Below are positions 4,216 to 29,811 of a stretch of 32,000 bases of DNA, piece after piece (positions within the stretch are counted from its first letter, which is position 1; the number at the start of each line of letters is the position of its first letter). This DNA is from Wolbachia endosymbiont of Cimex lectularius. GTDB lineage: Bacteria > Pseudomonadota > Alphaproteobacteria > Rickettsiales > Anaplasmataceae. Location: positions 360,001 through 392,000 of the forward strand of contig NZ_AP013028.1 of NCBI RefSeq assembly GCF_000829315.1. The letters are read 5' to 3'. The notes below the pieces were generated by a model. The model did no database searches and was not told the origin of the DNA. It saw only the letters and a list, made by a program, of their open reading frames with translations. Both the position numbers and the translations under genes were made by a program.

Positions 4216-4242
4216 AAAATTCCATTATCAAGAAATTAAAAT

Positions 4243-4268
4243 AAAGTAGAAGTAAAGACAGCAATATA
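4243..4268 (-). promoter_or_regulatory. 3' arm of the 16S rRNA processing stem (pairs with 5884..5909)
   Basis: AAAGTAGAAGTAAAGACAGCAATATA on the + strand is the reverse complement of 5884..5909 with one mismatch. The two arms bracket the 16S gene. Confidence 0.6.
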
Positions 4269-4315: not shown

Positions 4316-5818
<1,503 letters not shown>

Positions 5819-5883
5819 TAGACTTCAACCTATAAAAGGTTGAGGGTACATCGGATAAATCCGACAAAAAAAATAATTAGCTT

Positions 5884-5909
5884 TATATTGCTGTCTTTAT
5901 TTCTACTTT
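5884..5909 (-). promoter_or_regulatory. 5' arm of the 16S rRNA processing stem (pairs with 4243..4268)
   Basis: TATATTGCTGTCTTTATTTCTACTTT on the + strand. In the minus-strand precursor, the leader and trailer arms form a ~26-bp duplex of the kind used as an RNase III substrate. Confidence 0.6.
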
Positions 5910-5951
5910 AGAAATATTTCGATTTCCAACTATTCAAACAACTTTGAAAAC

Positions 5952-9899: not shown

Positions 9900-9986
9900 A
9901 ATTATAATGACGATCTCTATTTAGGTAATGTTACCAATCTTTCCTGTATATGTGAATTTTTATTAGACTTATGGGCTACCACTTTA

Positions 9987-10847
9987 GAACCTGTTTAAAA
10001 TCTTCGTAACAGGAGAGAAATGAAGGAGAGGACTATCATCTGTAAGCTAGTGTTGAGCTTCCGCTCGCAATTTTTCCACAATCGCCTGCACTTTTCTAAC
10101 CAGGCAAAAGAGCGTTCAACAACCCATCTTTTTGGCAATACGACGAAAGTGTGTAACTCACTTCGCTTTATTACTTCAACAGTCGCACCAATGATAGCTT
10201 TTATTTGTGTTGCAAAATTTTCTCCTGTGTAGCCAGCATCAACCAGTATGTTTTTAACTTCAGAGAGGTTTGCTTTAGCATTTTCGACCATTTTCACAGC
10301 ACTGCTACGGTCAGTTGCTTCTGCCGTTGTTACATAAATTGCATGTGGCAAACCTTGTGTATCAACTGCAATATGGCGCTTTATCCCTGAAATCTTTTTA
10401 CCTGCATCATAGCCTTTTTTTTTCAGCAGTATCTGCGTTTTTAACGCTTTGAGAATCAATTATACAAAAGCTAGTTTTCTCTTTCCGACCATTGCTGATA
10501 CGGACCTCTCCAACTAATTTTTTTTAAGACTAATTCCAACAAGCTTGGCTCTTCTCCACTCTTTTTACTCCACACTCAAAAATAGTAATATACGCTTTCC
10601 CATCTTGGAAAACCCTTTGGTAACATCCTCCACTGACAACCACTTTTTAAGACGTACAACACCCCACAAAATACGTCATACAAATCAAGTTTTCTTGGTT
10701 TTGTTTTCTGCTTGCTACTCTCCAAAATTGGCCTGATTTTTTCAAACTGCTCTTGACTTATATTACTTGGATAACTTTTCTGCATAGACACCTCATTATT
10801 AATCTATGCTTACTTTACCTCACATTTCCAAGATTTTAAACAGATTC
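9987..10847 (-). mobile_element. IS5-family insertion sequence (IS1031/ISWpi1-like), copy 2, complete (861 bp) with TTA target-site duplication
   Basis: The termini are GAACCTGTTTAAAATCTT (9987) and AAGATTTTAAACAGATTC (ending 10847). TTA flanks both ends (9984..9986 and 10848..10850). Confidence 0.9.
9995..10791 (-). pseudogene. IS5-family transposase, inactivated (nonsense codon in orfA plus frameshift in orfB)
   Basis: CGA in copy 1 is TGA at 10576..10578, so orfA ends ...VYYYF*. The homopolymer at 10415..10423 is T9 versus T8 at 346..353 in copy 1. This moves the DDE domain out of the frame reached from the slippery site. Confidence 0.8.
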
Positions 10848-10914
10848 TTAGACCCACAACTACACAAGCATTATGATTTGACCAACCGCCATCCAATAGA
10901 AACAAAAAAACTAC

Positions 10915-10943
10915 TTGACAACCTTCACCTTTCCTTTTATCAT
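10915..10943 (+). promoter_or_regulatory. Sigma70-type promoter of element A1 (TTGACA-17-TATCAT, preceded by an A-tract)
   Basis: AACAAAAAAACTAC-TTGACA-accttcacctttccttt-TATCAT. Confidence 0.5.
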
Positions 10944-10987
10944 AGTACTGAAGCTATTATTTAACTTCCCAATCTGTGCAGGTTAAA

Positions 10988-11101
10988 ATGACAAGAAAAC
11001 TTGTATTTGGCGTACTATTGTTTAATTTTTCGCACTATGTGCACTGCATGTCTTTTTAAAACTTCGGGTTTTTACCCATACAAGCTGAAACGCGCTTATA
11101 A
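10988..11101 (+). pseudogene. Mini-ORF of element A1 with an in-frame TAA at codon 24
   Basis: After GCAGGttaaa comes ATG: MTRKLVFGVLLFNFSHYVHCMSF*NFGFLPIQAETRL*. The ATG and the final stop are in the same frame and align with the start and stop positions in copies A2 and A3. Confidence 0.25.
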
Positions 11102-11227
11102 GTCGTTTAAGACATCACCCAACGCCGGATTTTAAAATAGAGAGTGGAATAACTAGCTACCTCGGGGTTTTATCGTCCTTTTCTTCTGCCTGGTAAATTT
11201 CTTAAATATTTATTATTAAAGTAGTAT

Positions 11228-11424: not shown

Positions 11425-14217
11425 TCACAACCACTCCCCTAGCCTTTCTAGTTGTTTATAGCTGTTAAACCTTAGGAATTTATCAAAATATGGAGAGGCA
11501 ATAAAGGGAGTGGCCTCTCTTAAATAATTAGATAAAAAATTCGGTAGATTATCTTGAAATTCCTGCATTTTTTGTCTGTAATCCTTCAAAGCAATAACCT
11601 TTATTTTATCATAGTCAAGTTTCCAATAAGCAAGTTCTGAAACTTCTCTTTTTGTTATATGTTCTACCGCTAAGGCTTGTAAAATTAATTGCGGAAAAAA
11701 TCCTGACATAACTTCTTCATTGGAAGGTGGTGAACCAAGTTTATAGTCTATAATTGCTACTTGCCCATTTGGCAGATATTCAACTCTGTCGCATCTTGCT
11801 GTCAGTGAAATTTTTTGTAACTTCTCTGTCATTCTATCCCTTTCTTTTTTCATGCAAGTAGCTGACATTGGACTCCTGTTTTCATTATACAATTGCTTAA
11901 AGTTTTCTGGATCCCAGTGTCTGGGCACTGGGATGACACCCTTCTTCTTAGTGGAAGTTGTACAGCATTCGCGCAGTTGCGTGTCATGCGCTGGAATGAC
12001 ACCAATATGAAATATCGGACAGGAAAAGCTCTTTTCCAACTCAACATAATTGCTTCGAGTCTCATCAAATTCGACAAAAGATTGAATTATCCTCTGCAAC
12101 CTTACCCACCACATATTTGAAAAATTAAACTGACTAGTCAAGAACGCTTCTCGTGCAATGCTCATCAGCGACTTTTTGTTGCGTAAATATCCTGCAAGAA
12201 TGTTGTGTACCATAGTGCCAAATTCCAATATCGATGGCTTAAAATTCAAGTCTCTTAATTGTTTAAGGTTCAGTATATATTCAACGTAAAATGAATAAGG
12301 ATTACGAATTAGCTTTTCTATTGCACTGCAAGACATCACCCGCATTTTTTCTTTTCTAACTTCGGTTTGAGGTTTTGGCATAGGCTGTGCACACGGAACA
12401 ACACATTCAGGTGTATTTAATATTCTTAGCCAATCGCGATAAGGATATTTTGATCCCTGTAACAGAATCTCTAAGCGCTGCAATAGAATTGGTTTCCTGT
12501 TGCTCAGTAATCTTGTGATGTATACTTTACTTGCACCAAATAAACTGCGCAGAGTATATAAAAAGCACCCCTGCTCCTCTTGCACGGAAGGAAGGTCGAA
12601 TTTTTCTCTCATCAGCGCATTCAAAAACGGATTTTGAAAACTTGGCATATCATAAAATCCAGCAAGTATTACAACTTTATTGTGATATAAACTGAATCTA
12701 TTGAAGTCGCTTGCTACAGAAAAAAACTCTTTCTTCACAAATAAGGTTAGGATTTGGCTATATAACTCTAGGGAACACTCAATCGTCATGTCCTCACATG
12801 CATTTAAGAAACCACGGGTAAAATTACTTACTTCATTATTTAGCCCTGAAAAATCTACCCAAGAAAGCAAATTAATACACTGCAAGTGAGCTGTTACCAC
12901 ATTAGAAACAGGGCAATTTATAGAATTAAGTAAAGGATTAAATATAACTTCTAACTTATTGATAATAATCAATATATCTTCTTTATATTTTAGCTTTTCA
13001 TGGGCATTAATAGCATTTATAATACTGCTTCGGCCGTTCGTACTGAAGCTGCGTAATATCTCTATCTCAAACTCAGATAGAATTCGAGTGTACTCTTCCT
13101 GAGTGTAACCAAAAGTCACTAGCCTATGTTTAAGAAGAGAAAGCAGTGCCACGCTGTTCCAATTTGAGGTCAAAACTTCAATACTATAAAGCAGAAGCGT
13201 TATGTAAGAATAGTTTTCCGACATGGAACACGCCATACGAGTTGCCAGTAATTTATCAAAGACAAACAAAGAAACGTTTTCATAACCTTCATTCTCTATA
13301 ATTAGTGACGTCACTTGTGCTTCTTCCTCCCTCGAATCACAAGTGATGACTTCGATATTTCCAATGCACTCATCGCTAACCTTGCTAAGATCAGCAGTTG
13401 TATCAAAGATGTAATCAATAATTTCGTTGTCCACAGTGTTCAAGCAGATAACATTTTTCCTATCTACATTTAAATAATCGAGCAGATCTTTCAGGCAATA
13501 TTGATAGTGTTTTTTATCAAGTGATTTCCAGTCTTTCTCTTCAATTTTCAGATTCAGGTTAGGTAAAATTATCTTCCCAAGTGGTAGGTCATATATAGCC
13601 TTAATCAATAACTTGTAGATTTCACCCTTTCCAATTCCAACAAAGATTATATGTTGATCTTTCTGCAGAGAGGCTATCATATTGTTTATGTAGTCACTTT
13701 TATGTTCTAGTATATCTACTACTCCCAGATCTTTTAAAGTGTTACTCCAGGTTTTGACAAGTAAGTTTATGAAATTCTCTATTTTCTTTGAGTGCTCATC
13801 GAACTGACAATAATCCGCTATTTGGGTATATTGGATCTTATCAAGTAGTGATGGCAAGCTATAAGCCAAGTCAATGGGAAAATTATCATTGTTTTCTTTA
13901 TTCCACTCCAATATGAATTGAATCAACAGCAGTGTCCTTTTTGTCGGCTTGATAACTTTAACTCTATCAAGATTTAATATTAAATCTTCTTCATCAATGC
14001 TCTCTAGCGAAACTATCTCTGGTAAAATTATGCATTTTTTAGCGCTGCAATTCTTGAATGCACTCAGCAACGCTATCACATCCCTCTTGCAAGGAAGGAT
14101 GACCTTTACCTTGGGAATTTCTTCTTTTCCATACTCAGAAAATATGTGCTGAGCCAGCACATCAAAAAAGGATTCATCTACCTCAGCAGTAAAAACTCTT
14201 CCCATAAAAAATGACAA
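11425..14217 (-). CDS. addB: AddB-like double-strand break repair protein (PD-(D/E)XK nuclease C-terminal domain)
   Basis: The N-terminus RVFTAEVDESFFDVLAQHIF...KVILPCKRDVIALLSAF matches the alphaproteobacterial AddB pattern. The C-terminal nuclease core is LTARCDRVEYLPNGQVAIIDYKLG. The tracked start is TTG at 14217; an ATG lies at 14205. Confidence 0.75.
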   Translation of the reverse strand: MSFFMGRVFTAEVDESFFDVLAQHIFSEYGKEEIPKVKVILPCKRDVIALLSAFKNCSAKKCIILPEIVSLESIDEEDLILNLDRVKVIKPTKRTLLLIQFILEWNKENNDNFPIDLAYSLPSLLDKIQYTQIADYCQFDEHSKKIENFINLLVKTWSNTLKDLGVVDILEHKSDYINNMIASLQKDQHIIFVGIGKGEIYKLLIKAIYDLPLGKIILPNLNLKIEEKDWKSLDKKHYQYCLKDLLDYLNVDRKNVICLNTVDNEIIDYIFDTTADLSKVSDECIGNIEVITCDSREEEAQVTSLIIENEGYENVSLFVFDKLLATRMACSMSENYSYITLLLYSIEVLTSNWNSVALLSLLKHRLVTFGYTQEEYTRILSEFEIEILRSFSTNGRSSIINAINAHEKLKYKEDILIIINKLEVIFNPLLNSINCPVSNVVTAHLQCINLLSWVDFSGLNNEVSNFTRGFLNACEDMTIECSLELYSQILTLFVKKEFFSVASDFNRFSLYHNKVVILAGFYDMPSFQNPFLNALMREKFDLPSVQEEQGCFLYTLRSLFGASKVYITRLLSNRKPILLQRLEILLQGSKYPYRDWLRILNTPECVVPCAQPMPKPQTEVRKEKMRVMSCSAIEKLIRNPYSFYVEYILNLKQLRDLNFKPSILEFGTMVHNILAGYLRNKKSLMSIAREAFLTSQFNFSNMWWVRLQRIIQSFVEFDETRSNYVELEKSFSCPIFHIGVIPAHDTQLRECCTTSTKKKGVIPVPRHWDPENFKQLYNENRSPMSATCMKKERDRMTEKLQKISLTARCDRVEYLPNGQVAIIDYKLGSPPSNEEVMSGFFPQLILQALAVEHITKREVSELAYWKLDYDKIKVIALKDYRQKMQEFQDNLPNFLSNYLREATPFIASPYFDKFLRFNSYKQLERLGEWL
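11907..12003. repeat. Palindromic-element insertion (two half-sites) inside the AddB-like ORF, read in frame
   Basis: CTGGATCCCAGTGTCTGGGCACTGGGATGACACC ... GTGTCATGCGCTGGAATGACACC. It is translated as GVIPAHDTQLRECCTTSTKKKGVIPVPRHWDPE just upstream of the nuclease core. Confidence 0.85.
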
Positions 14218-14304: not shown

Positions 14305-17300
14305 ATGACAAACATCAGAATAGAAGTTTTAAACAAATGTAAGCAAATTGGCAATAGATGGCTAGTCAACGTTTATTTGATTTATATAAATAAAGAATTA
14401 CCATCAAAATTACATGAAGAAATCTGTGGGCTATTTTATAATGGAATTATACAAGATTGCCGCCATTACCTTTACAACAAAGATCTTGAAGAAGTTCAAT
14501 ATGATTTCATAGAACCGCAAGCTGAGTGGGGCTTGGAAATAAGCTTCTTGCCTGGCATGAACGATAATGTAGGCAACACGGCAAAACAGATTGTCAGAGA
14601 GTATTTAATTAGCAAAGGCTATATCGACCAGCCTGTCATCCCAGTGCTTGACACTGGGATCCAGAAAGAGAAAACGCAGATTCCAGCGTCACGCGCTGGA
14701 ATGACACCAATTGAGATCAAAGCAAGAAGTTCAAAATTGATCTTGGGTAAAGGGAGCATAGCAACCGAAGATGATATAGAATTCAACCCTATCACTGAGT
14801 ATTGCACGTTTATTTATAAGAAAAACGGCAATTGTCATTGGAGGCACTGCGGTAAACAAAATACCCCACCTGGTGTCATTCCAGCACGTGACGCTGGAAT
14901 CTATGGATCCCAGTGTCGGGGCACTGGGATGACAAGAGAGGGTACTGGGATGACAGAGAGCGGTACTAAATCTGTCAACCTCAATGTGAGTGACCAAGAG
15001 CTTGAAAAGATCAGCAGAGATGGAATCGATGGTAATGGCACTTTAGGGTTCTCTCTCGCAGCAATGAAAGCTATAAAGGATTACTTCAATAAACTTGGTA
15101 GAAATCCCTATGATATTGAACTTGAGTCCCTAGCGCAGACTTGGTCTGAACATTGTAAGCACAATATTTTTTGTTCTCCCATTGATGAAATAAAAGATGG
15201 CCTATATGCACATTATATTAAGCGTGCAACGCGTGAGATAAACTCTGACATATGCGTATCAGTTTTCTCCGACAACGCAGGAGGAATAATTTTTAACGAT
15301 GATTACTTGATTGTGGATAAAGTTGAAACTCATAATAGCCCTTCAGCTCTCGATCCATTTAGTGGAGCAATGACTGGAGTGCTTGGAGTTAACCGCGATA
15401 TACTGGGCTTTGGCAAAGGTGCAGTGCCTATAATGAATACCTACTATTTTTGCTTTGCCAAAAAAGCAAAAGGCAAACTTTATAGAGATAAAGAGCGCAC
15501 TGATGAAATTTTGCCACCAAAATATATCATGAAAGAAGTAATTCACGGTGTTAATGTTGCTGGCAATTGCTCTGGCATTCCAACACAACTTGGATCGGTA
15601 TATTTTGACGATAGATTTTGCGGAAAACCGTTGGTCTTTGTTGGAAGTGTTGGAATTATTCCGCGCAATATAAATAATGCACCTTCACACATTAAAAAGC
15701 CCCAAAATGGAGACAAAATTGTAATTATTGGTGGAAGGGTTGGAAGAGATGGAATTCACGGGGCAACGTTTTCTTCGGAGGCACTATCGGGAAACAGCCC
15801 TTCAACAGTTGTGCAAATTGGTGACCCTATAACGCAAAAAAAATTGTCCAATGCCGTCATAGAGGCAAGAGATCTTGGTCTTTACAATGCAATAACAGAC
15901 AATGGAGCGGGTGGCCTATCGTCGTCTATCGGTGAAATGGGAAAGAATGGATTTGAAGTCAATTTAAGCAAGGTTCCACTTAAAAACGATGGTATGGCCC
16001 TATGGGAAATATGGATATCAGAATCACAAGAGAGAATGACCTTAGCAGTGTCAGAAGAAAATCTGCCTGCGTTTAAGCAAATCATGAAAAAACACGATGT
16101 GGAAGTCAGCGTAATTGGAGAGTTTAATAGTACGGGTGTGTCAACAGTTCGATTCGCTTCCGCTTCACCGATAATGAATATCGAAACTGAGTTCCTACAT
16201 AATGGCAATCCTAAAATGCATTTACAGACAAAGCTGTGGTCTAAGGGGCCTACAGCACCCTTTTCTGTCATCCCAGCGCTTGAACAGGCTTTACCTATTT
16301 TTGAGAAATATTATGGTCCTGATCATTTTAAAGTTGTTAAACCACTGGCAGGTCTCACTGGAATCCAGAAAAAAGAAGAATGGATCCTAGTGTCAAGCAC
16401 TGGGATGACACCACATCAAGAAACTGAACTAAAAGAAATGCTGAGCAGACCAAACATTTGTGGCAAAGAGTTCATAGTGGTGCAATATGACCATGAAGTT
16501 CAGGGATCGTCAGTGCTGAAACCATTGCAGGGCAAAGGAAGAGTGTGTAGCGAAGCTGTTGTTTCAAGACCAGTTCTTTCTTCAAACAAAGGTGTTGTGA
16601 AATCACAGGGGTTTGGCTCAAGTTATGGGGAAATTGACACTTACCATATGGCAGCATGCGCGATTGACACTGCCATACGCAACTATGTAGCTGCAGGAGG
16701 AGATATAAATCATCTAGCGTTGCTCGATAATTTTTGCTGGTGTGATGCTCATAATCCAGAAAGGCTGTGGCAACTAAAGAGAGCCGCGGAGGCTTGTTAT
16801 GACTTTGCAACTGCATTTCAAACCCCATTCATATCCGGAAAAGATAGCATGTTCAACGACTTCAAAGGGTACGATGAAAATGGCAAGGAAGTGATGATCT
16901 CTGCGCCACCTTCATTACTTATTTCAGCAATTGGAGTTATAGAAAATATTGAAAATGCGGTATCACTTGACGTGAAGATGCCAGGAGACTTGATATATGT
17001 GCTTGGTATAACATACGACGAACTTGGTAGATCTGAGTATCAGTTATACAGTGGAATAGATAATAACAACGTACCAAAAGTCGATGCAAAGAGCGCCAGG
17101 AAGTTGTATGAGTGCTACAACCTTGCAATAAAAGATGGCATAATTGCTTCTGCAATTGCACCAAATCTGGGAGGATTGGCTGTTGCTCTGGCAAAATCGC
17201 TAATTGCAGGAGATCTCGGTGCTGAAATTGATCTCTCACTAGTGCCAGTAGGGAAAACACAAAATACAGATATAATAAACAAGATAATAATGTTTTCTGA

Positions 17301-18916: not shown

Positions 18917-18948
18917 ATAGAAATAGAACTAAAAAAACTACTTGACAA
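18917..18948 (+). repeat. Relic of the element promoter end (A-tract plus TTGACA only)
   Basis: ATAGAAATAGAACTAAAAAAACTACTTGACA matches the 5' end of A1 (ATAGAAACAAAAAAACTACTTGACA). No -10 box or mini-ORF follows. Confidence 0.5.
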
Positions 18949-19040
18949 ATTTCTCCGTATCTGTTCAACGGAATGATAAAATGAGATAGACAAGATGCTC
19001 TAAAAAAGTAATCATATAGTAAAAGTGAGTTTACAGCAAA

Positions 19041-19066
19041 GGGTGTCATGCTAGTGCTTGACACCC
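19041..19066. repeat. Solo hairpin related to the palindromic elements
   Basis: GGGTGTCA-tgctagtgct-TGACACCC. Confidence 0.7.
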
Positions 19067-19110
19067 AGCTGTACGAACATTGCAATTAGCAGGTAATTTG
19101 CGTAACAGAC

Positions 19111-19250
19111 GGTGTCATGCCAGTGCTCGACACTGGGATCCAGCCTTTCCATAATATCAAAACGTCGTATTTTAACATAAAACAGCTACTTTTATACTCA
19201 CAAACTTAATAAAATTCCTGGATGCCAGTGTCGGCTACTTGCATGACACC
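19111..19250. mobile_element. Full-length MITE-like palindromic element (140 bp) with ~33-bp terminal inverted repeats
   Basis: The left end is GGTGTCATGCCAGTGCTCGACACTGGGATCCAG and the right end is CCTGGATGCCAGTGTCGGCTACTTGCATGACACC. The non-coding core CCTTTCCATAATATCAAAACGTCGTATTTTAACATAA... is shared with 26991..27124. Confidence 0.8.
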
Positions 19251-20187: not shown

Positions 20188-21240
20188 CTAAGATTTGCAG
20201 TCACAACCCACTGCCTCACTGATGTTACTCAGCCCATCTCTTCTGATCAACTCTGCAAGCTCTAGGTTGATTTTATTCACAACTTGAGGCCCTTGGTATA
20301 TGAGAGCAGTGTACAGTTGTACTAGAGAGGCTCCTGCCTTTATTTTTTTATATGCATCAGCACCACTTGAAATTCCCCCGCATCCTATTAATAGTGTCTT
20401 GTCCTTAGTGAGTTTATACATGTCACTCAATAACTCAGTTGAAAGTTTAAACAGTGGTCTACCGCTCAACCCGCCAATCTCGTTGTGATGAGAATGCAGA
20501 TTATCTCGACTAACCGTAGTATTGCTTACTATCAAGCCGTCAATTTTGTATTCTAGTGCAAGTTCAGCAATATTTTCTTTTGTTTGCTGATTTATATCTG
20601 GAGAAATTTTTAATATTATTGGTATGGACCCAGAGTTATCGATTGATTTCCGGGTTAAAGTTATGGACTTCAACACTTCTGATAATTCTTGTTTATTGTG
20701 CAGGTTGCGTAAATTTGGCGTATTCGGAGATGAGATATTCAGCACTATATAACTACTTTTCCCATATACCATCTTTATTAAGTTAACATAGTCACTGACT
20801 TGGTCCTTTGAAGTGCTATTTTTCCCTATATTGATGCCGAAAACGCAATCATCAAGCTTGGTTTCATCTACTTGCTTAAGGAAATAGTCTATTCCTTTAT
20901 TATTAAATCCTAATCTATTGATTATTCCTTCGTCTTCAATTAACCGAAAAATTCTCGGTTTTTTATTTCCGTATTGAGGGTGTTTAGTTACAGTACCAGC
21001 CTCGATAAATCCAAAACCAAGTGAGAGCATGGACCTTATAACTTCCGCATTCTTGTCAAAACCTGCAGCAAGACCCACAGGGCTCCTAAGTTTATTACCA
21101 AAAAAGTTTACGTTTAAAGATTCTGGTAGTTCTATGGGTTTTCTACAAGGCATCTTTTTTAACATCGTGATTGCCAAGGAATGAGCAATTTCAGGTGGTA
21201 GCAAAAACAGTAAATTACGTAATATCATTTTGTAAAACAC
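20188..21240 (-). CDS. pyrD: Dihydroorotate dehydrogenase (quinone), class 2
   Basis: GFIEAGTVT, LNISSPNTPNLR and GGISSGADAYKKIKAGASLVQLYTAL motifs. The tracked start is GTG at 21240; an ATG lies at 21228. Confidence 0.93.
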   Translation of the reverse strand: MFYKMILRNLLFLLPPEIAHSLAITMLKKMPCRKPIELPESLNVNFFGNKLRSPVGLAAGFDKNAEVIRSMLSLGFGFIEAGTVTKHPQYGNKKPRIFRLIEDEGIINRLGFNNKGIDYFLKQVDETKLDDCVFGINIGKNSTSKDQVSDYVNLIKMVYGKSSYIVLNISSPNTPNLRNLHNKQELSEVLKSITLTRKSIDNSGSIPIILKISPDINQQTKENIAELALEYKIDGLIVSNTTVSRDNLHSHHNEIGGLSGRPLFKLSTELLSDMYKLTKDKTLLIGCGGISSGADAYKKIKAGASLVQLYTALIYQGPQVVNKINLELAELIRRDGLSNISEAVGCDCKS

Positions 21241-21473
21241 TCTTCAGTTTATTTTCTACCATAAAACGCTATGAGAGTATAACTATAACTTTAAAAGAAG
21301 ACGTTTTCATTGGTTTTGCTTATGAATAAGCTTTCTGGCCTTACCCAGTTCATGTTAGTCATAAATATTTAAAAAATTTACCAAGCGGAAAAAAAGCAAA
21401 AGAAGCCCCGAGTGGCGAGTTTTGACTCTATAATACTTTAAATTGGCGCTATAATAATTTACTGACGCTTAGT

Positions 21474-21581
21474 TTAAGCGCGATTTGGCTGAATGTAGAA
21501 AAAATGAAAAAGATATGCAGCCGCTATAATTTGATACAATCCGCCAAAAAATACCCTGAGTTTTTTACTAAATTTTGTCAT
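21474..21581 (-). CDS. Candidate 35-aa small hydrophobic peptide (mini-ORF of element A3)
   Basis: GCAGGctca-ATG: MTKFSKKLRVFFGGLYQIIAAAYLFHFFYIQPNRA*. It has a basic N-terminus and a ~23-residue hydrophobic core, and lies ~45 nt downstream of the predicted promoter. It is too short to appear in the ORF track. Confidence 0.3.
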   Translation of the reverse strand: MTKFSKKLRVFFGGLYQIIAAAYLFHFFYIQPNRA

Positions 21582-21631
21582 TGAGCCTGCAGATCAAAAA
21601 CAAGTTTTGAGTCAGAAATATCCTTATTGTT

Positions 21632-21660
21632 ATGATAATGGGATCGGCGGAATTTGTCAA
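21632..21660 (-). promoter_or_regulatory. Sigma70-type promoter of element A3 (TTGACA-17-TATCAT), oriented toward pyrD
   Basis: The minus strand reads AATAGAAAAAAAACTGC-TTGACA-aattccgccgatcccat-TATCAT. Confidence 0.5.
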
Positions 21661-21801
21661 GCAGTTTTTTTTCTATTGAATAACGGCTGATCTAATCACA
21701 AAGAGGTTCTCAAGAGGAAGTGCCTATGTCAAAAATAGAATTTTTTTACACTTTAAAAAAGTAATGTATACTTTGTTAACTGAAAATCACTTTTTTTTGA
21801 T

Positions 21802-23328
21802 ATGCAAGACTTTAAAATATTAGAAAACCTAAAAGCCAAAGCACTAGAAGCTGAAAAAGGAGGCGGTCCTGATAGGATCAACAAACAGCATGCAAAAGGG
21901 AAACTAACAGCTAGAGAAAGGCTGAATATACTGCTCGATGAAAATTCGTTTGAAGAATACGACAAATTCGTAAAACACCACGCAACTGATTTTGGCATGC
22001 AAAATACTAATTTTCTAGGTGATGGAGTTGTAATTGGCCACGGTACTATCTATGGCAGAAAGGTTTTTGTTTATTCTCAGGATTTCACTGTCTTTGGTGG
22101 GTCACTTGGTGCGTCACATGCAAGAAAAATATGCAAAATTATGGATATGGCAATCAATGCCAAGGCTCCAATTATCGGGCTAAATGACTCTGGTGGAGCC
22201 AGGATTCAAGAAGGAGTAAATTCCCTTGCTGGCTATGGAGAAATTTTTCAAAGGAATGTAAACGCATCAGGCGTTATACCACAAATCTCTTTAATTATGG
22301 GCCCATGCGCTGGCGGTGCAGTTTATTCTCCAGCATTAACTGACTTTACTTTCATGGTGAAAAACAGCTCATACATGTTTATAACCGGACCAGATGTAGT
22401 AAAAAAAGTCACCTACGAAGACGTAAGCCACGAAGATCTCGGTGGAGCAAAAATCCATACAAGCAAAACAGGAGTCGCAGACTTTGCGTTTAATAATGAT
22501 GTTGAAATGCTGCTAAAAATGCGAGAATTCTTCACCTTTTTGCCAGCAAATAATCAAGAGTTTCCGAAATCTGTACCAACCTGCGATGATGTCGATGATG
22601 TTGATGAATCTTTAAATACTCTAATTCCTCATAATCCTAATATTCCTTACGATATGTATGAACTGATTGAAAAGGTATGTGATGAAAGGAAGTTTTTTGA
22701 GCTAAAATCTGATTTTGCTCGTAATATCATAATTAGTTTTAGTAGAATTAAAGGAAATACCGTCGGCATCGTTGCAAATCAACCTACGCACCTTGCAGGG
22801 TGTTTGGATATTGACTCTTCAAGAAAAGCTGCAAGGTTTGTAAGGTTCTGTGACGCATTTAACATCCCTATTATCACACTCATTGACGTTCCAGGGTTTC
22901 TGCCAGGTACAAATCAAGAATATAATAATATAATACAACATGGAGCAAAGCTGCTCTACTCTTACGCTGAAGCGACTGTACCGAAAATCAGCCTTATCAC
23001 TAAAAAAGCGTATGGTGGTGCATACATTGTCATGAACTCTAAACATCTAAAAGGTGATATAAATTATGCTTGGCCGACTGCTGAAATAGCTGTGATGGGC
23101 CCTGAGGGTGCAGTTGAAATTATATTTCGACGTGAAAAAGATCAACAAACACTGGCTAAAGAGTACAAAGAAAAATTCGCTAATCCATTTTTTGCCGCAT
23201 CACATGGGTATATTGATGATATAATAGTGCCAAGTAAAACGAGACATCACCTTCATAAAGCATTAGAGCTACTCAAAAACAAGAAAGTAGAGAGAATATG
23301 GAAAAAGCATGATAATCTGCCTTTGTAA
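21802..23328 (+). CDS. pccB: Propionyl-CoA / acyl-CoA carboxylase carboxyltransferase (beta) subunit
   Basis: 508 aa with the [11 protein letters not shown] and [10 protein letters not shown] motifs and the typical N-terminal [14 protein letters not shown]. Confidence 0.93.
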
Positions 23329-26682: not shown

Positions 26683-26990
26683 ATAACCCCCTAATTAATT
26701 GGCAATAATGATTTTTTTCTGCAAAGTTTTAATTCCCTGTTATCATTATAGTTAGATTTATTGAATAATACCAACATTCGTTATTGGGAAGACAGATGGG
26801 ATATGTTATAAACTTGCTTAACTTTCCAACTATAGGCAAAAAGAGCTCTTTTTCATTTGTTCCATTACCAATGAAACTTGGTATAAGTAAAGTAATTTCT
26901 TTATAGAATAGTCTTGGGCAAAAGAACGGAATAAGGACCTCGACTTACAATCATCCCAACCCCTATGATGTCATTCTAGCGCCCTTTCTC

Positions 26991-27124
26991 TTGTCATCAC
27001 AGCGCGTGACGCTGGGATCCAGTCTTTCCATAATCATCAAAAACGTCGTATTTTAACATAACTTTTATACTCACCAACTTAACAAAATTCCTGAATGCCA
27101 GTGTCTGGGCACTGGCATGACACC
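26991..27124. mobile_element. Full-length MITE-like palindromic element, second copy (134 bp)
   Basis: TTGTCATCACAGCGCGTGACGCTGGGATCCAG ... CCTGAATGCCAGTGTCTGGGCACTGGCATGACACC. The core TCTTTCCATAATCATCAAAAACGTCGTATTTTAACATAACTTTTATACTCACCAACTTAACAAAATT is homologous to 19144..19217. Confidence 0.8.
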
Positions 27125-27190
27125 CTATGGTGCTGGAATAACAACATTTGTTGCAAAAACAAATGTTCGTTCATGAATTGCTTTAATACT

Positions 27191-27343
27191 TAAGAAATTT
27201 ACCAAGCGAAAAAAAGGCAAGAGAAACCCCGTGGCGGCTAGTTATTTACTTTTGTGTCGAAATGTTGGCGTTTCTTTATCCTAAACACTTAATAAGTGCG
27301 ACTTAGCTGCTTTTTAATGCAACTAACCTTAGCCATAAGCATT
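27191..27343 (-). repeat. Partial tandem copy (A2') of the 3' half of the promoter-plus-mini-ORF element
   Basis: TAAGAAATTTACCAAGCGAAAAAAAGGCAAGAGAAACCCCGTGGCGGCTAGTT recurs 153 bp later at 27344. The rest of the unit is recognisably related but diverged. Confidence 0.7.
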
Positions 27344-27442
27344 TAAGAAATTTACTAAGCAGAAAAACAGGCAAAGAAACCCAGAGTAGCTAGTTATTCA
27401 CTATCTATCTTTTAAATTGGTGTTTTTGATGTCTTAAACGAC

Positions 27443-27559
27443 TTATAAGCGCGTTTGAGCTTGTATAGGTAAAAAACCAGAAGTTTTAAAAAGACATACG
27501 GTGCACATAGTGCAAAAAATTAAACATGAGACGCCAAATATGCTAAGTTTTTTTGTCGT
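27443..27559 (-). pseudogene. Mini-ORF of element A2 with ACG in place of the ATG
   Basis: GCAGAttaa-ACG ACA AAA AAA CTT...: (T)TKKLSIFGVSCLIFCTMCTVCLFKTSGFLPIQAQTRL*. The frame is open for 38 codons from the position homologous to the A1 and A3 ATG. Confidence 0.25.
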
Positions 27560-27600
27560 TTAATCTGCACAGACTGAAGATTAATAATAGCTTCAGTCTC

Positions 27601-27629
27601 ATTATAAGGGTAACGGCGAAGGTTGTCAA
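27601..27629 (-). promoter_or_regulatory. Perfect-consensus sigma70 promoter of element A2 (TTGACA-17-TATAAT)
   Basis: The minus strand reads AACAAAAAAACTGT-TTGACA-accttcgccgttaccct-TATAAT. It is followed immediately by the inverted repeat AGACTGAAG-N11-CTTCAGTCT (27571..27599). Confidence 0.55.
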
Positions 27630-27858
27630 ACAGTTTTTTTGTTTCTGTTGGGTAGCTTTTTCTACTGTTGTTCGCTCGTTCCTTGTCCAGCGAGGATTGG
27701 AACACCTTGTGTTTGAGGCAAAACCCGCTATACACATTGTTTTTGGAACAAATATTCGTACGATTGTGTATGTAACGTTGAGATAACAGATACCGTAAAA
27801 TTTGACATTAACCGCTAATAGTTGGAATATTAGTAGAATAAGAATTACTCAAGAGAGC

Positions 27859-29811
27859 ATGCATAAATATGATGTAGTGGTAGTAGGTGGCGGTCATGCC
27901 GGGTGTGAAGCAGCTACAGCTACAGCTCGCCTTGGTGCAAGCACACTACTTATAACCCATAAAATTTCAACTATAGGAGAAATGTCCTGCAATCCAGCAA
28001 TTGGGGGAGTTGCAAAAGGTGTTGTAGTCAGAGAAGTTGATGCTCTTGATGGAATAATGGGAAGGGCAGTCGATCAAGCCAGTATACACTCAGTCATTCT
28101 AAATAGCAGCAGAGGCGCAGCAGTGTGGGGACCGCGCGCACAGGCAGATCGAAAATTATACAAGCGAGCAATACAGGAAATTATTCTAAACTATAGTAAT
28201 TTAGCGGTAAAAGAAGAGTCAGTTGACGATTTCCTTATCGAAAGTAATAGCAACGGAAAACCGTGCATTAAAGCTGTAATAACAAGCTCAGGGGAACATA
28301 TATTAACAGGCAAAGTCGTTCTAACTACAGGAACTTTTCTGTGTGGTGTGGTTTATATAGGAGAACAAACAACCCCTTCAGGAAGAATGGGAGATAAGTC
28401 CGCAGTAGGGCTTGCAAATACGCTGAAGAAATACGATTTTAAACTAGGTAGATTGCGCACTGGAACTCCACCGAGACTCGATCGTGGCACTATCAATTGG
28501 CCAGTATTGCAAGAGCAAGTGGGCGACAATCCACCTGCACCGTTTTCTTATCTCACAGAGAAAATTAATCAACCTCAGGTTTCATGTTTCATTACTCATA
28601 CTAATGAAAATACACATAGAATAATTCGAGAGAACCTCCACAGGTCAGCTTCTTCATATTTAGATGATGTTGTTGCACCAAGATACTGCCCGTCTATTGA
28701 AGCTAAAGTTAAAAAATTTATAGAAAAAAATAGTCATCAAATATTCCTAGAACCAGAAGGGCTCGATGATGATACTATATACCCAAATGGAATTTCAAAC
28801 TCATTGCCCATCGAAGTGCAGTGTGAAATGATAAATAGCATCAAGGGGCTTGAAAACGCAGAAATATTAAGACCTGGATATGCGGTTGAGTATGACTATA
28901 TTGATCCACGAGAGCTATTTTATACCCTCGAAACTAAGAAAATTAAAGGTCTATATTTCGCAGGCCAAATTAATGGTACCACTGGATATGAAGAAGCGGC
29001 AGGGCAAGGGATTATTGCCGGAATCAATGCAGCACTCTCTGCATCTGGAAAAAAAGAAAGCTTTGTTCTTCACCGCACAGATTCATATATCGGTGTAATG
29101 ATAGATGATTTGGTCACTAAAGGAGTAACCGAGCCTTATAGATTATTCACCTCACGTGCAGAATATAGGCTAGCAATCAGGTCAGATAATGCGGATAGGA
29201 GGCTCACACAAAAAGGTTATGACATTTCCCTTGTGTCATATGAGAGGTACTCTGTTTTACAGAATAAACTTAAATCCATTAAACAGCTTGAGGAGAAGTT
29301 GGAGAGCCTGAAAATTACTCCTGAGCAGCTCAGGTTCTATGGTATTAAAATATCTTATGATGGCATAAGAAAAACGGCACTAGATCTACTTAGCTATCCC
29401 AATATCGATTGGAACAAATTACAAGAAATATGGCCGGAGTTAAACAGCGTCACACGCTGGAATGACACTAGAATGGATGCAGCTAATACTGGATCCTCTC
29501 CTGTTATCCCAGTGCTTGACACTGGGATCCAGGAAATAATCGAAATCGAAGCAAAATACAAGCCTTACCTAGTAAGACAAGAAGCAGATATGAAGTTTCT
29601 ACGAGAGGAGATTAACACTCAAATTCCAATCAATTTCAACTATTCACAAGTTAAAGGATTGTCAAGTGAGGTAATAGAAAAGTTGCAGACGATAAAGCCA
29701 GCAACGATCGGCGTTGCAAAACAAATACAAGGCATCACTCCAGCAGCGATAGTAAGCATATTGGTGTATTTGAGAAATGGGAAGATAAAAGTAACTGCTA
29801 ATTCTGCGTGA
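27859..29811 (+). CDS. mnmG: tRNA uridine 5-carboxymethylaminomethyl modification enzyme MnmG (GidA)
   Basis: [22 protein letters not shown]-binding N-terminus, GPRYCPSIE-type motif ([11 protein letters not shown]) and [18 protein letters not shown]. The tracked ORF starts at TTG 27802; ATG 27859 fits the family N-terminus. Confidence 0.95.
29445..29532. repeat. Palindromic-element insertion in mnmG (right-type half followed by left-type half), in frame
   Basis: CAGCGTCACACGCTGGAATGACAC ... GTTATCCCAGTGCTTGACACTGGGATCCAG, translated [29 protein letters not shown]. Confidence 0.85.

Follow-up and report, generated by a model that had tools for sequence, protein, structure and literature searches.

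The window analysed here is a 32,000-nucleotide stretch of the genome of wCle, the Wolbachia endosymbiont of Cimex lectularius (positions 360,001 to 392,000 of contig NZ_AP013028.1), which belongs to supergroup F; its G+C content is 37%, and it carries a 16S rRNA gene and one tRNA. The subject is an interspersed element of which the window contains three full copies (A1, A2 and A3), together with a single additional 3' unit and a single relic of the 5' end. A3 lies within the 561 nt that separate pyrD (20188-21240, minus strand) from a divergent carboxyltransferase gene (21802-23328), and A2 is ~140 nt away from mnmG, upstream of that gene and divergent from it. An initial annotation, made from the sequence alone, had described a multi-copy element with a common architecture and not random intergenic DNA, and nhmmer, run with a hidden Markov model (HMM) built from A1, A2 and A3, recovers every copy that it named:

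21361..21688, minus strand: A3, full copy of the A3 type (nhmmer match 21362-21688, E = 2.1e-82)
10885..11213, plus strand: A1, full copy of the A1 type (nhmmer match 10885-11212, E = 1.5e-96); promoter on the plus strand with -35 at 10915-10920, -10 at 10938-10943 and inferred start at ~10950
27335..27660, minus strand: A2, full copy of the A2 type (nhmmer match 27336-27658, E = 4.5e-99); promoter on the minus strand with -35 at 27629-27624, -10 at 27606-27601 and inferred start at ~27594
27182..27334, minus strand: tandem extra 3' unit (hairpin and 3' module) behind A2 (nhmmer match 27185-27308, E = 2.3e-14)
18922..18965, plus strand: 5' relic, consisting of A-tract and TTGACA without a usable -10, the rest of the element missing (nhmmer E = 7e-6)

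Within A3 the parts of the element are arranged as follows:

21655..21672, minus strand: A-tract and -35 hexamer TTGACA (21660-21655); promoter scan 11/12
21632..21637, minus strand: -10 hexamer TATCAT; inferred transcription start at ~21625
21474..21590, minus strand: GCAGG (21590-21586), ATG (21581) and a 35-codon open reading frame (ORF) to TAA at 21476-21474, annotated as WCLE_003690
21542..21547, minus strand: 5' arm TTGGCG of a long-range helix, within the ORF (partner CGCCAA, 21448-21443)
21465..21481, minus strand: mid hairpin GCGCTTA-AAC-TAAGCGT, overlapping the stop codon
21443..21448, minus strand: 3' arm CGCCAA of the long-range helix
21369..21421, minus strand: 3' module AACTCGC..GGGG..T-run..GGTAAATTTTTTAA

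A1 and A2 are 83% identical over ~320 nt, and their alignment contains the two opposite 1-nt indels described initially. Similarity of A3 to either of them is confined, at the level of BLAST, to the 5' ~45 nt and the 3' ~85 nt; A3 can be aligned end to end with 26 A3-like copies of other Wolbachia. The conserved 3' module is also borne out, its pattern giving four matches in the window and none in 100 shuffles.

Promoter activity and conserved pairings

All three full copies possess exactly the promoter that had been reported for them, i.e., TTGACA, a 17-nt spacer and TATCAT or TATAAT. Across 84 full copies of the family, TTGACAA is ~99% conserved, and the -35 and -10 hexamers are 90-99% conserved as opposed to 45-80% for the 17-nt spacer, as would be expected of sequences that diverged but kept a working promoter.

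Direct evidence for transcription comes from a published Cappable-seq study of wMelPop-CLA and wAlbB, which gives the sequences from 50 nt before to 100 nt after each start site and lists start sites of the element without recognising a family (PMC12558409). Four entries of its supplement match the element, with mean values in c.p.m. (counts per million):

oTSS_+_1247436, wMelPop-CLA, A3-type, 720 c.p.m.: upstream sequence ...CTTGACAAACTCCTCCAGCGCCCTTATTATAGTGTTA, RNA starting AAGGGTATTTATGACTCAAAAC...
oTSS_-_131390, wMelPop-CLA, A2-type, 40 c.p.m.: RNA starting GAAGCTATTTATTTATC
iTSSps_+_1067756, wMelPop-CLA, A2-type, 45 c.p.m.: start one base earlier, at TGAAGC
oTSS_+_181436, wAlbB, A3-like, 211 c.p.m.: ATA in place of ATG

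The mapped start of oTSS_+_1247436 is the A of AAGGGTATTT, 7 nt past the -10 box, and the starts of the wMel A2-type copies map to GAAGC. Transferred to the window, these distances of 7-8 nt past the -10 give ~21625, ~27594 and ~10950, so that the starts predicted for A3, A2 and A1 correspond to mapped sites in homologous wMel copies. We take the promoter of the element to be functional: it fires at the predicted position in related strains and, by homology, the copies of wCle would do likewise. In strength, the wMel A3-type copy comes shortly after the two strongest of the orphan start sites examined, ncrwMel02 (oTSS 1,039,620; 2452 c.p.m.) and the site at 915,471 (1233 c.p.m.); identity of the element with either was considered and rejected, both being unrelated in sequence.

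A scan for covarying helices identifies three pairings downstream of the promoter, namely a 5'-terminal hairpin, the long-range helix and the mid hairpin. The long-range helix joins TTGGCG(T), inside the ORF, to (A)CGCCAA ~100-150 nt downstream, at a distance that depends on the subfamily; 91% of its cells are paired across 82 copies, and the pairing is also present in the minimum free energy (MFE) fold of A3. The stem of the mid hairpin, GCGCTT(A)/(T)AAGCGT, is kept across subfamilies despite different loops, with wobble or compensatory changes. Overall, the conserved pairs are intact in ~90% of cells. Departures from them are G-U more often than A-C (20% versus 1% in the 5' hairpin, 11% versus 4% in the long-range helix), and this bias suggests that the RNA of the promoter strand is under constraint. 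At the very 3' end of the element, beyond the U-run, lies GTAAATTTYTTAA, which varies least in the whole family; the invariant 3' stretch GTAAATTTCTTAA is the most conserved part of the element. No Rfam 15 family matches at gathering threshold, and permissive scans of two copies return only chance-level hits (E > 1). In the copy lineages that persisted, promoter hexamers and RNA pairings have been retained, whereas spacer and reading frame have drifted.

A dispersed family with an old site and probable exchange of bodies

The distribution of the element was surveyed by searching for the pattern of the 3' module in one genome per species and fetching at least 120 stretches (827 kb), in which nhmmer identifies at least 196 matches to the element, at least 86 of them full length; the search in other Wolbachia genomes that had been proposed yields a family. 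Among the matches listed, almost every stretch with the 3' module belongs to Wolbachia or to a 'Rickettsiales' bin derived from termites, and the few pattern matches in other phyla can be attributed to chance because none has an nhmmer match. The Wolbachia copies come from hosts as diverse as Mansonella, Tribolium, Laodelphax, a cicada, two beetles and a louse, and the element occurs in supergroups A, B, C and F, with wMel (A) and wAlbB (B) known from the published tables.

Every copy is intergenic, and the flanks of different copies are unrelated. Outside the element nothing is conserved except an optional 45-nt 5' extension, ATAGACTTCTTGCATAACAAACTTTTGGCAGCGCGTTGGA, which precedes 14 of 79 copies (e.g., at loci L003, L004, L006, L116 and L079) and is absent from the window. 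Copies also sit at contig ends in fragmented bins, a signature of a high-copy repeat. Several subfamilies can be distinguished (A3-type, A1-type, A2-type and others), which differ in spacer and body and share both ends. The element exists in a short form of ~320 nt and a long form of ~470 nt with a second 3' unit: exactly one extra 3' unit, never more, is present in 28 of the 86 full copies, with a period of 107-159 nt, and A2 together with its tandem partial copy is such a long form.

Two further sequences were observed at the 3' side of some copies. A perfect 10-bp hairpin, AACATTTGTT-TTTGC-AACAAATGTT, preceded by AGCAATTCATGAACG, stands directly 3' of the last 3' unit (27132-27178 in the window, 7647-7693 in L110, and in L042) and is common to wCle and wTis at mnmG; it could be the true 3' boundary or the terminator of the long form. 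In addition, ATGCAAGA is found inverted at the 3' flank of two copies (L093 and L109), a faint hint of inverted ends.

The history of the element can be followed at single loci. At the mnmG position it is present in wCle, in the supergroup F bin C61_2, in the supergroup B genome CP101657 and, internally deleted, in wOo (supergroup C), and it is absent from the supergroup A genome OZ034776. The body at this locus is A2-type in wCle, C61_2 and wOo and A3-type in wTis and the supergroup B genome, both of the latter with an intact 35-codon frame. As the position is shared across lineages with different bodies, the site is old and the body has probably been exchanged between the conserved ends.

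By contrast with the mnmG site, which reaches across supergroups, the position of A3 upstream of pyrD is found, among the genomes examined, only in close relatives within supergroup F. The initial annotation had proposed that A3 acts in a leader of pyrD, with its mini-ORF as an upstream ORF (uORF); this is unlikely. The ~70 nt directly upstream of pyrD are conserved also in supergroup A and B genomes that lack the element and have a tRNA and DeoC there, so that pyrD has its own upstream region, not dependent on A3. Moreover, the C61_2 copy at pyrD is decayed, with TTGATA and TATCTC for the hexamers, ATA for ATG, indels and a damaged 3' module. Between DeoC and pyrD, the supergroup A and B genomes have a tRNA-like sequence, GGCTGGGTGGCAGAATGG... 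(L122 2209-2290, L123 2303-2380). Since wCle has the carboxyltransferase gene and the element in place of DeoC and the tRNA, the neighbourhood of pyrD has been rearranged between supergroups.

The other copies of the window have counterparts as well: an A1 orthologue is found in the metagenome-assembled genome (MAG) Spi319_bin9 (L061), and the 5' relic is in the same state in the MAG C61_2, in a colinear alignment of 90% identity. Comparison of wCle with C61_2 gives the following identities:

two orthologous elements: 89.6-89.8%
adjacent non-element intergenic DNA: 88.8-93.9%
coding DNA: 96-97.5%

In a relative-rate test for selection on single copies, the flanks show a long C61_2 branch just as the copies do. 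A BLAST search joining flanks among the fetched loci returned no empty site; the pyrD loci of supergroups A and B are not syntenic and the mnmG position is filled in four of five lineages, which leaves no clean empty site.

Upstream of A1, which starts 37 nt past its end, lies an insertion sequence (IS) present twice in the window, at 1-778 (cut by the window start) and 9986-10848, with 99-100% identity over the part common to both copies. Its ORF at 9995-10459 (minus strand) encodes a DDE_Tnp_1 transposase, and its ends form imperfect inverted repeats of ~45 nt (9986-10030 versus 10804-10848). The IS duplication was considered as the edge of A1 and rejected, as it stops 37 nt short of the element.

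RNA, peptide, cassette or selfish repeat

The mini-ORFs of the three copies are in the states first described, 35 intact codons in A3 (21581-21474), a stop after 23 codons in A1, and 38 open codons behind ACG in A2. The interpretation drawn from them, a small-protein gene family in decay, does not hold for the family as a whole. Over the 84 full copies the frame is unconserved: it shifts between and within subfamilies, with stops at codons 5, 12 and 23, and indels and stops in orthologous copies fall without regard to it. Outside the A3 type the start is variable. The surrounding block, GCAGATTAAA-ATG-ACAAA, is 90-99% conserved save at the start codon itself, where, of 55 copies, 29 retain the T and 42 the G. 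The T column has 11 parsimony changes and is among the top 6 of 256 columns; we rejected this hot spot as evidence of selection, because other sites of intermediate frequency behave alike and recombination can explain it. An ATG-initiated ORF of at least 35 codons arises by chance in 20% (sense strand) or 35% (either strand) of dinucleotide-preserving shuffles of A3. As to the A3 peptide, its basic N-terminus is followed by a hydrophobic stretch of ~20 residues with a borderline Kyte-Doolittle maximum of 1.58 over 19 residues, and a hydrophobic peptide is what T-rich DNA is expected to encode. None of the A1, A2 and A3 peptides has a match in Pfam or NCBIfam, and a search of the A3 peptide against a collection of 5.8 billion proteins finds only six tiny Wolbachia hypothetical proteins, including WCLE_003690. 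The family-wide evidence speaks against the mini-ORF being a protein gene, or at least fails to show that it is one.

We lean, with modest confidence, towards the view that the element is a promoter-bearing interspersed repeat which gives rise to a non-coding orphan RNA, with selection at the level of the family on transcription and a few pairings, spread and reshuffling by recombination, and neutral decay of copies. Each copy would be a self-contained transcription unit, in which an A-tract and a near-consensus sigma-70 promoter drive an RNA of ~250-300 nt with a small 5' hairpin, a mid hairpin, a long-range helix and a U-rich 3' module. The relevant product would be the RNA or transcription itself, not the 35-residue peptide; recombination at the DNA level between the conserved ends would spread and reshuffle copies, and single copies would later decay roughly neutrally. 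Two of the roles initially suggested, a repeated small RNA (sRNA) and a mobile promoter cassette, come close to this view, while the third, a type I toxin-like peptide, can be entertained for the A3 type only.

Several observations weigh against an RNA under selection. The terminator scan is negative and no 3' end is shown, a weak GGGGC/GCCUU stem before the U-run being the only possible terminator-like structure. Whole-RNA folds are no more stable than shuffles (z = 0.09 and -0.20), RNAalifold on 82 copies gives almost no consensus structure, and the covariation counts are not independent, as the copies share ancestry. A search for target complementarity in 860 kb of Wolbachia DNA finds only T-rich noise. 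Between wCle and C61_2, orthologous copies have diverged at the pace of neutral intergenic DNA, so that a host-level function of each copy is not demonstrated. Finally, in the A3-like set GCAGG and ATG are kept in 24 of 27 copies, about half of them with the full frame, which leaves room for translation.

This last point bears on the rival that survives best, and which we nevertheless hold to be unlikely: that a small membrane peptide resembling type I toxins is encoded by A3-type copies alone, whose relatives in the other subfamilies and with frameshifts have been inactivated. The 35-codon frame is kept in 13 A3-like copies from several genomes, among them the supergroup B copy at mnmG, and one more has an in-frame 12-nt deletion; the best-expressed wMel copy has an intact start, and the ORF is annotated in wCle. 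Type I toxin mRNAs typically have a 5' hairpin and a long-range pairing, both of which are present in the element, and the repeated loss of ATG in the other subfamilies could mean selection against a harmful peptide. However, the remaining A3-like copies have homopolymer frameshifts or deletions, and the density of frameshifting indels is no lower in the ORF than in the untranslated parts. Among intact copies the variable sites are distributed over the codon positions as 5/9/12, which is not significant, and the ratio of nonsynonymous to synonymous polymorphism (pN/pS) of 0.47 falls inside the range of the other five frames (0.23-2.83). The wAlbB copy without ATG is transcribed, and chance ORFs of this length, borderline hydropathy and the lack of a family match argue in the same direction. 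The antisense transcript that had been envisaged over the mini-ORF does not appear: the published Cappable-seq tables list no minus-strand start site over the wMel A3-type copy, and no conserved antisense -35/-10 pair is seen on reading the complementary strand.

A bolder version of the preferred view, which we regard as speculative and rather unlikely, is that of a self-propagating RNA gene, surviving by its transcription and with a conserved role in Wolbachia, to which A3-type copies perhaps add a membrane peptide, and spreading by recombination without a transposase. Such a gene might act as a toxin-like or regulatory module that has no antisense partner of the classical kind and, if true, would be a mobile non-coding gene of a kind undescribed in obligate intracellular bacteria.

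Less probable again is a mobile promoter cassette or leader acting in cis on the downstream gene, as would be the case for A3 and pyrD. The promoter is strong, conserved and active, no terminator was detected, so that read-through is possible, A3 is directed at pyrD from ~385 nt, and a co-oriented downstream gene is present in 38 of 65 copies. Yet the other 27, including A1, face a convergent gene, so that no orientation rule emerges; the proximal conservation at pyrD in element-free genomes and the loss of both hexamers and ATG in the C61_2 orthologue also speak against it. In addition, conservation past the start site equals that of the promoter, which a pure cassette does not need.

We consider it improbable, and slightly more so than the cassette, that the element is a purely selfish or neutral repeat, akin to a miniature inverted-repeat transposable element (MITE) or a remnant of a larger element, whose conservation reflects youth or gene conversion. 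This would accommodate the high copy number, the subfamilies, the contig breaks in MAGs, a divergence between copies equal to that of neutral DNA, the body swap at mnmG and the optional 5' extension. However, terminal inverted repeats were not seen by eye in the aligned ends, no transposase, intron or other ORF is attached, and neither Rfam nor the phage and plasmid collections contain a match. Youth alone hardly explains how subfamilies diverge in spacer and body and yet keep hexamers and pairings, and the mnmG position is common to supergroups F, B and C. A phage or plasmid origin is rejected, there being no matches in the collections (one true copy is found at the end of a 7.8-kb viral-bin contig), as is a fragment of an IS, intron or protein gene, the copies being intergenic, with no attached ORF and no similarity found.

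Relation to known systems and neighbouring repeats

The element resembles LDR (ldr/rdl) of E. coli and other repeated type I toxin-antitoxin loci (hok/sok, ibs/sib) in consisting of repeated intergenic units of a few hundred bases with their own promoter and a hydrophobic ORF of ~35 codons behind a structured leader, some copies being inactivated. It differs from them in that no antisense RNA or promoter is detected, in that frame and start are not conserved across the family, and in occurring in dozens per genome instead of a handful of copies. With the Correia elements of Neisseria, the pneumococcal BOX and ERIC/REP-BIME it appears to share a dispersed, intergenic, non-autonomous and modular build, a tandem-repeatable unit, transcription and the capacity to bring promoter activity; unlike these, it is longer, shows no evident inverted termini in the aligned ends and has a complete consensus -35/17/-10 promoter reading into the element. 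Within Wolbachia, ncrwmel01 and ncrwmel02 are orphan sRNAs that likewise have intergenic start sites, similar in strength, in this Cappable-seq data set; the element is multi-copy.

The wMel genome paper describes uncharacterised repeat families, e.g., 'repeat family 8' with 45 copies (PMC368164). As described there, these are multi-copy, occur in the same genus and show no similarity to known elements, as does our element; they have inverted-repeat flanks, of which none was seen in the element, a comparison made by description only. VNTR-141 and VNTR-105, variable number tandem repeats with 23-bp hairpins and 9-bp stems (PMC3287509), were also considered and set apart by description, as neither their periods nor their hairpins fit. 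The sequences of the element are printed in no paper of the literature searched, and we conclude that it is an interspersed bacterial repeat or multi-copy sRNA-like gene, probably hitherto unrecognised as a family.

To our knowledge, Wolbachia cannot be genetically manipulated, and very little is known about its regulation. With dozens of strongly promoted orphan units per genome, the family accounts for a large share of the Wolbachia non-coding transcriptome that has gone unrecognised until now, and it provides a ready natural set of promoter and RNA variants for expression studies. Movement or recombination of copies could, through their near-consensus promoters, change how adjacent genes are expressed. 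The element also probably gives rise to erroneous annotations of hypothetical proteins, WCLE_003690 being an example, and to breaks in the assembly of metagenome bins.

Two further repeats were observed in the window. The lone 16S rRNA gene (4316-5819) is flanked by a 27-nt inverted repeat (4242-4268 and 5884-5910, 96% complementary), probably the processing stem of the 16S precursor. A second repeat family, short and palindromic with the core TGTCATCCCAGTGCTTGACACTGGGATCCAG, is present both between genes and inside long ORFs (a PD-(D/E)XK nuclease gene, an FGAM-synthase-like gene and mnmG), often directly 3' of element copies:

11904-11942: palindromic repeat
11983-12009: palindromic repeat
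14627-14716: palindromic repeat
14867-14959: palindromic repeat
16381-16418: palindromic repeat
19037-19250: palindromic repeat
26986-27142: palindromic repeat
29445-29544: palindromic repeat

These repeats recall the protein-coding palindromic elements of Wolbachia and Rickettsia, and their insertion may explain the range of lengths, 619-731 aa, found among MnmG homologues.

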